DNA from: an uncultured virus (IMG/VR IMGVR_UViG_2061766007_000575)
Taxonomy: Duplodnaviria > Heunggongvirae > Uroviricota > Caudoviricetes
Length of the DNA: 58,636 nt
Virus record (IMG/VR): IMGVR_UViG_2061766007_000575
Strand: one strand, 5' to 3'
The notes under the pieces were generated by a model that was given only the letters and a program-made list of their open reading frames with translations, was not told the DNA's origin and ran no database searches. The stretch's first letter is position 1. Every line of letters begins with the position of its first letter. Of the stretch, positions 4,499-13,433 are shown piece after piece. The translations under genes and the position numbers were made by a program.

Positions 4499-5538
4499 AT
4501 GGAATTTATAAGTGATTTACAAAAAGAAATAATTGAAGCTAAAGATAAAAATATTTGTGTTTTTAGTGTCGCAGCTAGCGGCAAGACAACGGTTTTAACG
4601 GAACGAGTTAAATATTTATTGAAAAATGGTGTTGATCCGGAATCAATTGTCGTCTTTACTTTTACTAATGCGGCCGCAGAAGAAATGAAAAAGAGAATTG
4701 GAGCAGTCGGCGCCAAGTGCTTTATTAATACCGTTCATGCTTACGCTTATTATCTTTTGACTAAAAATGGAATTGATACAAGTACAGCTATAAATGAGGA
4801 AGATTTTGATGAATTCTTTCATTTAATTCAATTACATCCAGAAGTTATTGAACCAGTTGAGCATCTATTATTAGATGAAGCGCAGGATTCAAACTTACTT
4901 CAATTTCAATTCATTCTAAAAATGATAAAACCGGCGCATTGCTTCATAGTTGGAGACGCTCGTCAATCAATCTACGGATTCAATGGCGGCCGACCAGATA
5001 TTTTAGTCGCTATTGCAAATGATTCTAATTTTACTGTTTATGAGTTAAATAAGAATTATCGTAATGGCCCGCGCATTTTAAATTTTGCTAAAAAGATTAT
5101 AAAAGGAAATAGAATCGAAGATACTGATATTGAGCTTTATGATACTTCTGTTTGTATGAAGATGGGTGAATTAGATTTAGTGACTGAAGTTGAGTATTTG
5201 CCTAGTCGAGTTATAAAAGCGATTCAAGATGATCCGCAATATGGTAATTGGTTTGTTTTAACTAGATCTAATGACCAGCTTGATAATGTAATGAGATATT
5301 TAACTAAGGCTGAAATTCCTTGCGATACTTTTAAAAGAAGTCAGCTTAGTTCAACTGAGTTTCAAGAGAAGATGGCGGCGAATACAGTAAAAGTTTTAAC
5401 AGTTCATTCTGCTAAAGGGCTTGAAGCTGACAATGTAATTGTAATTGGTGTTGCAAAATTTAGCATTAATCCAGAAGAAAGACGAGTAGCTTATGTTGCG
5501 GCGACTCGTGCGCGCAAGAAATTAATTTGGATGAGGAC
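4499..5538 (+). CDS. UvrD/Rep-like SF1 helicase (C-terminus seen in variant copy 6850..7189)
   Basis: AASGKTT, TFTNAAA.EM, LLDEAQD, VGDARQSIYGF, NYRN, TVHSAKGLE, YVAATRAR. Confidence 0.92.
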
Positions 5539-8607: not shown

Positions 8608-9344
8608 CAGGCAGAGGCATTAAAATTTTATATTTAGTCTTCCAAAAGATTACTTATAATTAGAAGTCAAAAAGGAGGTTCTAATTATGAGTAATAAAGC
8701 AAAGTGGAGAAATTTTTCTAAAGAAGAATTACAACAATTCGTATTAGATTCTATTTCTTTTAGAGAATTGGCTGGAAAATTAGGTTATGTTAAAGATGGA
8801 GGGGGAACTATTACTTCTTTACATAAAATGTGTGAAGAATATGGTTTTGATACTTCTCATTTTAAAGGGCAATCTTGGAATAAAGAAAACTATGACTATT
8901 CTTTATTTACAAAAGATTCAATAAAAAAGAATGGTATAACCACTTTAAAGCCTTTAATCAAATTAAGAGGTAGAAAATGTGAATGTTGTGGTTTGGAAGA
9001 ATGGTTAAATCAACCAATTAATTTAGAAATACACCATATTAATGGTGACCGAACGGATAATTCTTTAGAAAATTTACAATTACTTTGTCCTAATTGTCAT
9101 TCTTATACTGATAATTGGAGAGGAAGAAAAGGTGCTAATGCTACGGAGCACTAGGATAGGAAACTTCCTATGTGAATGCTGGCTAATTCGGTGAAAGCCT
9201 TACTGAGGTAACGCCGAGCTAAATTCAATAAATGTTGATAAATGTGTAGAGACTATATACCAGCCACCTAAACAGAAATGCATGGTGAAGACATAGTCCA
9301 GACTACAACGGAGTAATCCGGCTATGGTGACATAGAGTAGTAAG
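8608..9344 (+). mobile_element. Group I intron (IC3/trnL-like) carrying an HNH ORF
   Basis: 5' exon ends in U, intron ends in G; P AATTCGGTGAAA, Q AACGCCGAGC, R GTGTAGAGACTA, S AAGACATAGTCC; IGS GGAG at ~9145 pairs with CUU|C. Confidence 0.92.
8687..9154 (+). CDS. Intron-encoded HNH homing endonuclease
   Basis: CECCG...LEIHHINGDRTDNSLENLQLLCPNCHS; AAGGAGG RBS. Confidence 0.92.
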   Translation: MSNKAKWRNFSKEELQQFVLDSISFRELAGKLGYVKDGGGTITSLHKMCEEYGFDTSHFKGQSWNKENYDYSLFTKDSIKKNGITTLKPLIKLRGRKCECCGLEEWLNQPINLEIHHINGDRTDNSLENLQLLCPNCHSYTDNWRGRKGANATEH

Positions 9345-10665: not shown

Positions 10666-10668
10666 AAT

Positions 10669-10744
10669 GCTGGTGTGGCGCAATCGGTAGCGCAAGTCAC
10701 TTGTAATGACTGGGTTGGGGGTTCAAGTCCTCTCGCCAGCTCCA
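10669..10744 (+). tRNA. tRNA-Thr(UGU)
   Basis: AGTCA-CTTGTAA-TGACT, CCA. Confidence 0.95.
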
Positions 10745-10768
10745 CTTAAAAAAAAGAAAGGTGATTTT

Positions 10769-11017
10769 ATGTCTTACTATAGAAAGCAAGAGGATAAACA
10801 CCGATTAAATAAACTTTATAATAAAACGAAAAACGGATACGGCGCCGGAGCCTATTATGATGACAGAAAGGATCGCTTAATTCGATATAGTTGTCATGAT
10901 AAAAATTGGAAGGCGCGCTGTAGACGTACAACTAGACGAAGACTTAAAAAAATGGAGTTTCATTGTTCTGGTTGTACTTATAAAAAGTTTTATGAATATT
11001 GGTGGCAAATACTATAA
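10769..11017 (+). CDS. Small basic hypothetical protein
   Basis: AAGGTGA RBS; MSYYRKQEDK..., Arg/Lys-rich. Confidence 0.7.
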   Translation: MSYYRKQEDKHRLNKLYNKTKNGYGAGAYYDDRKDRLIRYSCHDKNWKARCRRTTRRRLKKMEFHCSGCTYKKFYEYWWQIL

Positions 11018-11059
11018 GAAAATTTGATTTTTTCTGAAAATTTAGATATAATATTTATA

Positions 11060-12005
11060 GAAAGTTGAGAGAGGCTTTGGAAATTAGCCCATGTAAGTAG
11101 TTGCTTCTTATCGTAATAACCTCTTCTATTCAATAGGCTCGTTCCGCCAACCGAACGGAACCTTGATTAGTGACGACAAGGATGAGTTGCGCAGTAGAGG
11201 GCCTTGCGACGAGTGACTAAATAATGTTTTTGGGACGCCTTTAACGAATAAGTCACACGGGAAACCGCTCAGTAAACCTATTGAAACTTTCTTTTATATA
11301 GGGGCCTTTGCCCCGTGGCGCCAGTATGGACAGCCTTCACGCGGCGGTGCTGATTTCGCTAATTTTAGTCCATTAGTCAGTTTATTATATATCTCGGTGA
11401 AGAGCAAAAGCCATTGTGCCGAGAGCCTAACCGCTCGAAGAGAGTGGTCTAGAATGGGAATGTTAGAGGATACCCTAACAAACCCTAGATGGCTCTTATT
11501 GTGAGATAAGAGTTGCCTGCGCCTAAAGGTGTGGCTAGAGGTTAGGTGTGCTGACAAAATCGCAACCAAAGATACTGTCTCATCGCATCCGCAATAGAAG
11601 TTGAGCGTTAAAAGCGTGAACTGAAGCCAAGTTAGAGTCCAGTGTGGCAACTGGGGTAGACCTTGGTAAAGCCAATAAGGATGTTTGTAGTGATGTCATG
11701 GTAACATGACTATAAGATGAGGTCAAGGTACGAGTAGCCTAATACAGGGACATATGGTAAAAAGAATATTTTTGAAGATTATTATTTTACTTCTTGTCTG
11801 AATGGTGGGTGAAAGTTAGAGGTAGACAATCCTCTCAAGCAAAGATATGAAGAATATCTAAGAGCGTAGAGTGCGCTTGAAGGCAAGAAGTTATAAGGTC
11901 GCTCCTTATGGCTCAGACTTGTTTTCGCTTGTGGTTGAATATGGTTGAAGGTTTAACAGTTGGTAGGGCGAAGGTCCATATAATAGTTACTGATTTATAG
12001 GTGAG
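11060..12005 (+). ncRNA. Large structured ncRNA, ROOL/GOLLD-like (boundaries approximate)
   Basis: ~950 bp without a credible ORF between a promoter (11024-11052) and a hairpin/tRNA; many helices and long-range pairs (11325-31/11974-80; 11790-99/11881-90); lies in a phage tRNA cluster. Confidence 0.65.
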
Positions 12006-12048
12006 TTTTATTGTCTTCTTACCTTTATACCAAAAAGACAATTTTTAT

Positions 12049-12122
12049 AGAGGATGTGGTGTAATAGCAGCACACAACATTTGGGATGTTGAGGCGCCGT
12101 GCAAATCGGACATCTTCTACCA
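12049..12122 (+). tRNA. tRNA-Pro(UGG), atypical (8-bp acceptor, short T-stem)
   Basis: CAACA-TTTGGGA-TGTTG; AGAGGATG/CATCTTCT; T-loop TGCAAAT; A-CCA. Confidence 0.8.
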
Positions 12123-12489
12123 AAATTAAATAGGGTCGCCGCTGGCATCTCAATTATCCGAGAAAAATGTACATTGACTCTATTTAAGATAACTCTCTAG
12201 GAGGTAGATGCCTATGAAAATGGTAAAAACTTCCCTTAGCGAGAGAAATCCAAATATTTGGGTTTGACGTTCGCTTAGCGTCGGTAAATAAATAAGGTTA
12301 TTGTGGTTCTTTGGATGACTTTCTACCATACTAAAAAAAAGAAAAACGCAGCGTTAACACGGATTTTTTAATCTTTTTAAACTACCACCGGCACTCAACC
12401 TCGGTGTCCTTGAGATATGCGGGTCAGTGATATGTGGCTTGGCGGCAAACGCTATAAAAGAAGGCGAAGTAAAAAAGATTTTCATATAT

Positions 12490-12563
12490 GGCGGGTTGGT
12501 GTAAAGGTAGCATAGCAGACTCATTATCTGCTGATTTGGGTTCGACTCCCAAGCCCGTAACCA
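12490..12563 (+). tRNA. tRNA(CAU), Met/Ile2, atypical (G1:A72 mismatch, U37)
   Basis: GCAGA-CTCATTA-TCTGC, GGTTCGACTCC, A-CCA. Confidence 0.85.
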
Positions 12564-12700
12564 ATTAACTACTTGTACCCACCTCCTTTAGTCGAGTTTT
12601 CCAGTTTTCGAGACTTTAAATCTAATCTGGTTACACGGAAGAGTGCGCCCGCACGTGGTAAAAAGGGGCGCATTTTTATTAAATAAAAGGGGTAAATAAG

Positions 12701-12994
12701 GTGTCTGAAAAGAAAATTGAAGAAATATTAGATTTTATACATCGTCGTTTTCCTTCGGATTGTAACTGGACAAATGGAAATTGCTTTTGGTTTGCTTCTA
12801 TTTTAAGAGCGCGATTTCCAAATCTTTCCATTTATTATCTTCCCATAACAGGTCATTTTATAGCCGGCGCGCTGAATACGTATTTCGACTGGACAGGACA
12901 GATCGTTCCAGAAGAAACTCCGCTTCTTTTAGACGAAATCTGTAAAAATGATGATGGATGGGGTTGGCGCCTTCTGCGTGATTGCGTCCTTTAA
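12701..12994 (+). CDS. Hypothetical protein (possible papain/transglutaminase-like Cys-His-Asp)
   Basis: GNCFWFA...GHF...YFDWTG. Confidence 0.65.
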   Translation: MSEKKIEEILDFIHRRFPSDCNWTNGNCFWFASILRARFPNLSIYYLPITGHFIAGALNTYFDWTGQIVPEETPLLLDEICKNDDGWGWRLLRDCVL

Positions 12995-12997
12995 TAT

Positions 12998-13078
12998 GGG
13001 GCATTGATGGGTATCGACTGCGGTTAAAGCCGACGAGCACTCCGTAGGACACGAGTTCAACTCTCGTATGCTCCACCA
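12998..13078 (+). ncRNA. Minimal tmRNA-like RNA (tRNA-like domain only)
   Basis: 5' GGGGCATTGATGGGTATCGAC and 3' GGACACGAGTTCAACTCTCGTATGCTCCACCA match tmRNA ends; G3-U70, A73; no D-stem, no anticodon arm. Confidence 0.85.
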
Positions 13079-13130
13079 AGAGAACAATAGGATGTTCTCT
13101 AATTTTTGTTTTCAAAAGGAGGAAAACATA

Positions 13131-13433
13131 ATGATTCGTTACTATTCAGATTTGACGAAGAAATTCTATGACGAAGCCAAGGAATGTGAAAAAGCCGAAG
13201 AACTCTTTAAAGAAGAAAAGGCTAAGAAAGAAGCTGAAGCGCTTCAGAAATCGAACGCGCGCAAAGAAGCCTCCAAAAAGGTGGATGAAGCACGTGAGAA
13301 ATTAATAGCCGCCCGTGATGAATATCAAAAAGTTCTCTCGGACTTCTGCAAAGACTATGGTTACTATCACGTTTCGCTCGACAAAAACAATATTGCCGAT
13401 TGGATAGATAGTTTTTGGGAGCGTTGGTTCTAA
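13131..13433 (+). CDS. Coiled-coil hypothetical protein
   Basis: AGGAGG RBS; followed by terminator AAAGCTCTCA/TGAGAGCTTT (~13447-13482). Confidence 0.8.
   Translation: MIRYYSDLTKKFYDEAKECEKAEELFKEEKAKKEAEALQKSNARKEASKKVDEAREKLIAARDEYQKVLSDFCKDYGYYHVSLDKNNIADWIDSFWERWF

Follow-up and report, generated by a model that had tools for sequence, protein, structure and literature searches.

A theta-type HDV-like ribozyme fold at the 5' end of a full-length ROOL RNA in the tRNA island of an uncultured caudovirus

Ribozymes of the hepatitis delta virus (HDV) type cut at their own 5' edge, and those at the 5' end of R2-type retrotransposon RNAs cut there and stay on the RNA downstream of them. Minimal HDV-like ribozymes, named theta ribozymes, occur in gut Caudoviricetes; they are minimal in that helix P4 is missing, they cut at their first base (G1), the first base of their joining segment J4/2 is the catalytic C, and cutting in vitro has been reported for four tRNA/ribozyme pairs, one of them with an elongated J4/2 (Kienbeck et al. 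2024, PMC10879173). The function of the 'isolated' theta ribozymes was left open by their discoverers, whose sequence sets number 1,753 and 7,704 (PMC10879173). ROOL RNAs are among the largest bacterial and phage non-coding RNAs. They are known from cattle gut, from phages and from positions beside tRNA genes (Weinberg et al. 2017, PMC5737381; Kretsch et al. 2025, PMC12286853). Members of the family self-assemble into a hollow homo-oligomeric cage whose structure has been solved (Kretsch et al. 2025, PMC12286853), and RNA cargo at the 3' end of ROOL is reported to be displayed radially and to leave the octamer undisturbed (commentary on Ling et al., PMC12515178). GOLLD is likewise a large, ornate, cage-forming phage RNA found near tRNAs, and the non-redundant loci number 1,596 for ROOL and 806 for GOLLD (PMC12286853). 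The sequence and fold of GOLLD differ from those of ROOL. Here we describe a locus of an uncultured virus (IMG/VR record IMGVR_UViG_2061766007_000575; 58,636 nt, the whole stretch being called the window below) in which a theta-type ribozyme fold directly precedes a full-length ROOL RNA, behind a leader that starts at a conserved promoter. We consider it likely that leader, ribozyme and ROOL form one transcription unit, the transcript of which cuts itself between U11316 and G11317. The elements of this unit are as follows.

11024-11052, + strand: sigma-70-like promoter (TTGATT 11024-11029, 17-nt spacer, TATAAT 11047-11052; 10 of 12 positions match)
11059-11316, + strand: leader RNA, 258 nt, starting at the conserved promoter
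11301-11314, + strand: GC-rich hairpin GGGGC-CUUU-GCCCC at the leader 3' end, 2 nt before the predicted cut
11317-11373, + strand: predicted minimal P4-less HDV-like 'theta' ribozyme, 57 nt, predicted cut 5' of G11317
11369-11998, + strand: full-length ROOL RNA (RF03087, 315.4 bits against a gathering score of 99.1, E 9.4e-72)
12010-12047, + strand: AT-rich hairpin plus TTTTT, read from the sequence (ATTGTCTT 12010-12017 with AAGACAAT 12035-12042, then TTTTT 12043-12047)

A first-pass annotation of 11060-12005, made from the letters alone, had proposed a giant ornate non-coding RNA with its own promoter, had guessed at ROOL from three 3' motifs, and had named the Rfam models of ROOL, GOLLD and OLE as the search to make. 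When the whole window was scanned with cmscan against Rfam 15, ROOL matched at full length (model positions 1-574 of 574), and 11369-11998 is an ordinary new member of this known family. The three motifs proved to be ROOL consensus in the cmscan alignment, as did the local hairpins GAGG/CCTC and ATAAGG/CCTTAT, which are ROOL consensus helices; the new large-RNA class that the annotation had foreseen in the absence of a match is not called for, a ROOL match having been found. GOLLD and OLE had no match in the window at the gathering score, nor in 10740-13300 at E<=5. All consensus helices and motifs of the family are matched, and the window adds to them the 57-nt 5' ribozyme and the 258-nt leader, both of which lie outside the Rfam ROOL model. 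The 5' strand of ROOL helix P1 begins at 11375, one base after the ribozyme (P2 ends at 11373), and its 3' strand includes TTACTGA (11987), with its partner at 11375-11390. The setting, a phage genome beside tRNAs, is that of other ROOLs: tRNAs flank the RNA, and the window carries terminase, head protease and endolysin genes. A full-length ROOL was found in 19 of 20 other viral loci tested by Rfam, mostly among tRNAs, and two relatives scored 333 bits (L001) and 332 bits (L003). Parts of 11328-12000 are represented in contigs from RNA libraries of four cattle-gut studies, in some cases with 0 mismatches on ROOL (e.g. 11535-11733 and 11722-11969); these are assembled contigs, in which RNA ends are not visible and DNA carry-over is possible.

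The hairpin at 12010-12042 is kept in L001, with changes in the loop only, and a terminator scan made no call at 12010-12047, the stem having just 2 G-C pairs. From its sequence, 12010-12047 is a weak terminator-like element and possibly a 3' protective hairpin; the ROOL 3' end may be set by this hairpin and its U-run, or by ribonuclease P acting on the tRNA-like gene at 12050. In L001 the terminator-like hairpin is separated from the ROOL 3' end by a 65-nt insert (5200-5265), which the window lacks and which has no HDV-like parse by eye; a related RNA-library contig (X5) continues past 12000 into letters similar to this insert.

The ribozyme is made up of the following segments.

11317-11322 with 11346-11351, + strand: P1
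11323-11325, + strand: J1/2
11326-11331 with 11368-11373, + strand: P2
11332, + strand: bulged A
11333-11335 with 11343-11345, + strand: P3
11336-11342, + strand: L3
11337-11338 (UC) with 11352-11353 (GA), + strand: P1.1
11354-11358, + strand: L4
11359-11367, + strand: J4/2, beginning with the candidate catalytic C11359

Judged by a comparison of 19 distinct sequences (alignment A2), 11317-11373 shows the fold of a theta ribozyme, the minimal HDV-like form without P4, and all four of its helices covary. The window copy divides into GGCGCC-AGT-ATGGAC-A-GCC-T-TC-ACGC-GGC-GGTGCT-GA-TTTCG-CTAATTTTA-GTCCAT, a nested double pseudoknot in which P1 and P2 cross and P3 lies inside. P1 reaches at least 6 bp in 19/19 relatives and in 25/318 cases with swapped partners. 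For P1 together with a hairpin inserted in L3 of L021-type relatives (covarying, with a GAAUA loop), the paired fraction of cells is 95.4% (35-47% in slid controls), the covariation score 0.726 (at most 0.162 in the controls), and both sides change in 48 cells (3-9 in the controls). P2 (6-8 bp) is formed by the P1 loop and the bases immediately ahead of ROOL; it has at least 6 Watson-Crick pairs in 19/19 relatives and occurs in 13 sequence versions (Fisher p ~3e-12 against shuffled tails, counting Watson-Crick pairs only, a test used in place of shuffles with G-U allowed, for which the single-sequence p was weak, median 0.06). P3 has 3 bp in 19/19 (GCC/GGC in 7, ACC/GGU in 11, GCC/GGU in 1), and P1.1 is UC/GA in 15/19, GC/GC in 3/19 and AC/GU in 1/19. 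G1 is present in 19/19 at the base of P1, where it forms a G-U pair in the window; C11359 stands in an invariant column of the alignment and is followed by UAA and then by the P2 3' strand. There is no P4, 5-6 nt (UUUCG or UUUCGA) lying between P1.1 and the C. The ribozyme was the sole match in the 58.6-kb window, both by the module profile (E 2e-8) and by a descriptor written for this analysis, and no Rfam family matches the module. The descriptor gave no second ribozyme behind ROOL, either in the window or in any of the loci collected. A residue-swap control of that descriptor was uninformative (C 41, A 41, U 37, G 3 matches), as the flexible lengths of L4 and J4/2 admit a neighbouring base. 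Three helices proposed by RNAalifold were rejected: a pairing of the leader 5' end with ribozyme L3/P3 (helix 1), equalled in 29-168 of 200 shuffles, and helices 13 and 14, which conflict with the P1/P2 pseudoknot backed by 19 sequences.

The module was then set beside the published theta ribozymes of Kienbeck et al. (PMC10879173). Catalogue rows (e.g. ribo_nr 1846) have a segment pattern equal to that of the window module, and the published P1.1 pairs are CC/GG, UC/GA and GC/GC; the letters in common are [A/G]CC-U-(C/U/G)C-NCGY-GG[U/C], then GA-UUUCGA-CUAA. The module of one relative, L009, is identical letter for letter to ribo_nr 7261, an 'isolated' (non-tRNA) catalogue entry. Theta ribozymes and the module also share their host group, gut phages, and their setting in tRNA islands. 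Unlike the tRNA-trailing theta ribozymes, the module heads a large non-coding RNA. In the tRNA-associated subgroup no more than 5 nt, in either direction, separate the cleavage site from a tRNA 3' end; here the closest tRNA upstream, a tRNA-Thr, has its end at 10744, 573 nt ahead of G1, and therefore we group the ribozyme with the 'isolated' theta ribozymes.

The module is fixed in its position on ROOL. One relative, L001, was found via an 82-amino-acid open reading frame (ORF) upstream of the unit and is a related phage contig 92% identical over 10667-12000; ROOL motif patterns gave 83 viral loci, and 11 more viral loci and 30 metagenome loci came from a sub-clade pattern. By Rfam, ROOL was present in 12/12 further loci checked (8 complete, 4 cut by the locus end) and in 8/14 odd ones. 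Among 63 distinct ROOL 5' contexts, most have a promoter a few bases ahead of ROOL or a tRNA immediately ahead of it, and a minority, all close to the window's ROOL, have a common block of 55-70 nt immediately before ROOL P1. The module profile matched 44 of 139 sources, 41 of which adjoin ROOL at -6 to +15 nt; one of the other 3 is cut by the contig end and two are chance pattern matches. A pattern for the module only found 6 places in viral contigs, 5 with ROOL directly behind and the sixth cut; its 5 matches in bacterial genome contigs, all of high-GC bacteria that lack ROOL, were discarded as chance. In L120, L105, L126, L104 and L111 a TATAAT box stands about 10-30 nt before the module, which elsewhere follows tRNAs, and such a variable upstream context fits an element that sets the ROOL 5' end regardless of context.

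Some of the collected loci deserve a remark of their own. One 402-kb viral contig (L032, L045) has two separate ROOL genes, each headed by a ribozyme, at a distance of about 200 kb. L115 is a metagenome contig that contains tRNAs and a ROOL headed by a ribozyme; its positions 1-123 partially match the 3' end of OLE RNA (66 bits, cut-off 50, cut by the locus end), and 597-633 match abiF RNA. In L036, positions 781-835 are ribo_nr 1754, the most frequent 'isolated' theta ribozyme of the catalogue (1271 occurrences), 255 nt upstream of ROOL; this locus was rejected as a ribozyme-ROOL fusion, a promoter lying between the two. The L036 ribozyme follows a non-tRNA stretch and may form the 3' end of another non-coding RNA.

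The promoter that the first-pass annotation had seen is conserved: both hexamers are kept in L001 and L091, and L003 has the same promoter and first transcribed bases. Its spacing would place the transcription start at about 11059-11060. The leader behind it has conserved blocks at 11059-11140 and 11270-11285 (CAGTAAACCTATTGAA) and an invariant 9-bp helix (TTCAATAGG 11129-11137 with CCTATTGAA 11277-11285) that encloses a variable core. Its 3' hairpin reads GGGAC-UUUU-GUCCC in L001, a G-C to A-U change on both sides, and its place is taken in L091 by a different 6-bp hairpin, GAGGUC...GGCCUC. Rfam has no match in 11060-11368, even at E<=5. By the leader profile, run on 138 loci, the leader occurs in 3 lineages only (the window, the L001 contig and the L091/L096/L100 contig), where its length is kept at 254-259 nt; the 5' block is 74% identical between the window and L091, the core 40%. 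In the RNAalifold structure of the leader, 96% of the cells pair against 35-46% when slid and 17 pairs change on both sides against 0-4, the structure having been derived from the same 3 sequences. Folding energy was no better than in shuffles, either for the 5' 315 nt (z = +0.13 on the + strand, +0.18 on the - strand) or for the leader core in the three lineages (z = +0.5, +0.2, -1.1). In two studies, contigs assembled from RNA libraries span 11104-11283 and 11095-11294, at 1-2 mismatches and depths of 17-24. Among the RNA-library pieces listed, none lies over 11295-11327, and two studies have contigs that begin at 11328 and 11332 with no loose ends there. We considered this gap as a trace of a cut near 11317 and gave it no weight: RNA ends are not visible in contigs, and strain variation in 11293-11322 would also break assemblies there.

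Taken as one unit, the locus would work in the following way. The promoter at 11024-11052 would give a precursor of leader (11059-11316), ribozyme (11317-11373) and ROOL (11369-11998); the ribozyme would fold into its nested double pseudoknot and cut just 5' of G11317, which would free the 258-nt leader with a 2',3'-cyclic phosphate end. The ribozyme would stay stacked on ROOL P1, giving a defined 5'-OH ROOL end whatever lies upstream, and ROOL would then assemble into its cage. On the analogy of published constructs, the 5' ribozyme probably lies on the outer side of the cage, because P1 joins both ROOL ends and 3' fusions are displayed radially. A bolder extension, to which we give little credit, is that some published 'isolated' theta ribozymes process cage-forming RNAs, and that the products here would be a ROOL with a knot-capped 5'-OH end outside the cage and equal amounts of a previously undescribed 258-nt RNA that would act with the cage, for instance as cargo or partner.

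Several observations weigh against a self-cutting unit of this kind. The module is present in just 7 of 67 ROOL loci with an intact 5' end, a sample not chosen by sub-clade, and therefore it is dispensable for ROOL. The window's J4/2 has 9 nt against 4-5 in the catalogue rows read, an A is bulged between P2 and P3, P2 has 6 bp, and the L021-type relatives have their L3 hairpin; all of these depart from the theta rows. The window's copy was also not found in the searchable catalogue files of the Kienbeck et al. 2024 supplement, which fits the longer J4/2, as 9 nt probably exceeds the published RNArobo descriptor. The module could then be an HDV-like fold that does not cut, a knotted 5' cap against exonucleases or an aid to P1 formation, and in favour of such a cap are these same deviations of the window copy, an L3 hairpin that the published descriptor would probably not accept, and the several loci with the module just 10-30 nt from the promoter, where there is little to remove. 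However, G1, the C at the start of J4/2, P1.1 and position 1 of L3 (U or C) are conserved in 19 diverged sequences; these conserved catalytic residues therefore argue against a mere cap, which would not need them. Moreover, the L009 copy passes the theta authors' own descriptor, and a ribozyme with an elongated J4/2 was active in the published in vitro cutting (PMC10879173), which counts for activity despite the long J4/2. We regard a non-cutting module as unlikely. The alternative that the whole 950 nt are one giant RNA, with the 5' 310 nt as a ROOL extension docked by 11269/11987, 11325/11974 and 11334/11946, we regard as very unlikely. It builds on long-range pairs from the first-pass annotation, all strings of which lie where it had placed them; the complements are indeed present in the sequence, a possible duplex of the 11269-11285 block and the ROOL 3' end comes to -10.1 kcal/mol, and 6- and 7-nt complements slightly exceed those in shuffles (37 seven-mer complements in the stretch against 25.7 +/- 6.4 in 200 shuffles). 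Complements of 6 and 7 nt are common, however, about 26 seven-mers being expected by chance; the four pairs gain no comparative support as helices, and the docking partners are already in comparatively supported ones. TTACTGA (11987), proposed to pair with TCAGTAA (11269), changes together with its ROOL P1 partner (11375-11390) in L091, where the 11269 block is fixed and its duplex falls to -6.3 kcal/mol. TATGGAC (11325), given GTCCATA as its partner, pairs locally with GTCCAT 11368-11373 as P2 (19/19 relatives, 13 versions), and CCTTCA (11334), given TGAAGG, is ribozyme P3/L3. The fourth pair, CTTCTTGTCT/AGGCAAGAAG (11790/11881), has no covariation, with a mean of 5.83 bp for own partners and 5.92 bp for swapped ones (18 of 21 ROOLs, 3 dropped without an anchor, the 3' segment mis-extracted in some rows). 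Such an extension is also missing from most ROOLs. The annotation's suggestion that the extra 5' part, put at about 200 nt, was an extension or a second RNA came close in kind and fell short in length: the part measures about 310 nt and has two pieces, a ribozyme fused to the ROOL 5' end and a leader that it would release as a separate RNA.

That the conservation reflects a protein, coded by a minus-strand ORF of 118 amino acids (11294-11650), has next to no probability. The frame is open in the window; it has a TTG start, is broken by a stop in L001 and by another in L003 and by stops and frame changes in L091, so that it is not conserved as protein, and the same bases are explained by the 315-bit ROOL match on the other strand. 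On the + strand, all ORFs inside 11060-12005 have at most 35 amino acids, in agreement with the annotation's remark that there is no credible one. On the leader the evidence is mixed. That it is a lineage-specific spacer between promoter and ribozyme, cut off and degraded, has in our view somewhat less than an even chance; it is limited to 3 lineages, has no Rfam match, shows a core only 40% identical between window and L091 and a folding energy equal to that of shuffles, and in other relatives the ribozyme stands right behind the promoter with no leader. Against a spacer, its length is kept at 254-259 nt, the 5' block, the 9-bp closing helix and the terminal hairpin with its compensating changes are retained, RNA-library contigs of two studies lie over 11095-11294 at depths of 17-24, and 96% of the cells pair against 35-46% when slid, in a structure that comes from the same three sequences. 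These sequences lend a conserved structure of the leader's own weak evidence, and the odds that it acts as a functional separate RNA are roughly even or less. A self-cutting unit of leader, theta ribozyme and ROOL stays our preferred account of the locus.

In the R2-type systems, as in this module, the ribozyme removes the upstream co-transcript and remains on the 5' end of a functional RNA; unlike the module, they are eukaryotic and have a full P4, and their downstream RNA is a messenger and template, not a cage RNA. ROOL and theta ribozymes are each known, and a ROOL headed by a theta ribozyme and a leader was not found in print: we found no published link between ROOL and theta or HDV-like ribozymes in the candidate literature, part of which was judged by title and abstract. 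The main text of the theta paper makes no mention of ROOL or GOLLD (PMC10879173), no mention of the ribozyme or leader was seen in the available text of the ROOL papers (PMC5737381, PMC12286853), and in Kretsch et al. the word 'ribozyme' stands in the reference list only (PMC12286853). A ribozyme fixed to the 5' end in one ROOL sub-clade offers a concrete account of how the 5' end of so large an RNA would form, would give a role to some 'isolated' theta ribozymes, and would mean that ribozymes in phage tRNA islands process large structured RNAs as well as tRNAs. It also suggests, for the design of ROOL constructs, that a natural ROOL can bear a folded 5' domain of 57-69 nt.

The surroundings of the unit are a tRNA island, in which 10 Rfam tRNA matches (cmscan, Rfam 15) and 9 ARAGORN tRNAs flank ROOL. 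Proteins encoded in the window include, by PHROGs, DNA ligase, helicase, homing endonucleases, PhoH, head protease, endolysin and large terminase; a phage-collection search found no deposited phage closely related to the window, and the sequencing runs that contain the stretch are labelled bovine gut or rumen. Other features near the unit are these.

9126-9321: group I intron (58 bits, Rfam), upstream of the tRNA array
end at 10744: tRNA-Thr, the nearest tRNA upstream of the ribozyme (ARAGORN)
12050-12118: tRNA-like gene (Rfam 43.5 bits, no ARAGORN call), directly after the terminator-like element
12998-13078: short match of transfer-messenger RNA (tmRNA) type, 81 nt (52.7 bits, cut-off 47, Rfam)

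The group I intron starts 29 nt before the end of an HNH endonuclease ORF (8687-9154). The 82-amino-acid ORF, which is Cys-rich and lies at 10769-11017 between tRNA-Thr and the ROOL promoter, has no PHROG match; its protein is 100% identical in L001, despite 3 silent base changes. The place of the tRNA-like gene at 12050-12118 corresponds in L001 to a tRNA-Pro(tgg). The tmRNA-type match spans model positions 1-374, most of the model being skipped; the same short form is present in L001 (6564-6644) and L003 (1871-1951), and L009 has a 302-nt tmRNA behind its ROOL. Suppressor-type tRNAs stand beside ROOL in two relatives, with anticodon CTA in L003 (976-1050) and TTA in the upstream region of L013 (78-150 of the extracted stretch); theta ribozymes have been connected with recoded phages (Kienbeck et al. 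2024, PMC10879173). Between the tRNA-like gene and a tRNA-Met, 12132-12480 looks non-coding and has no Rfam match. RNA-library contigs lie over this region at high depth (12144-12335, depth 78, X10; 12209-12339, depth 40, X5), and by eye it is similar to 300-560 of L003. It contains a GGAGG box followed by a tiny ORF, the peptide of which seems, again by eye, to be conserved between the window and L003 (..KTSLSERNPNIWV vs ..KTSWSEKSPDIWK).

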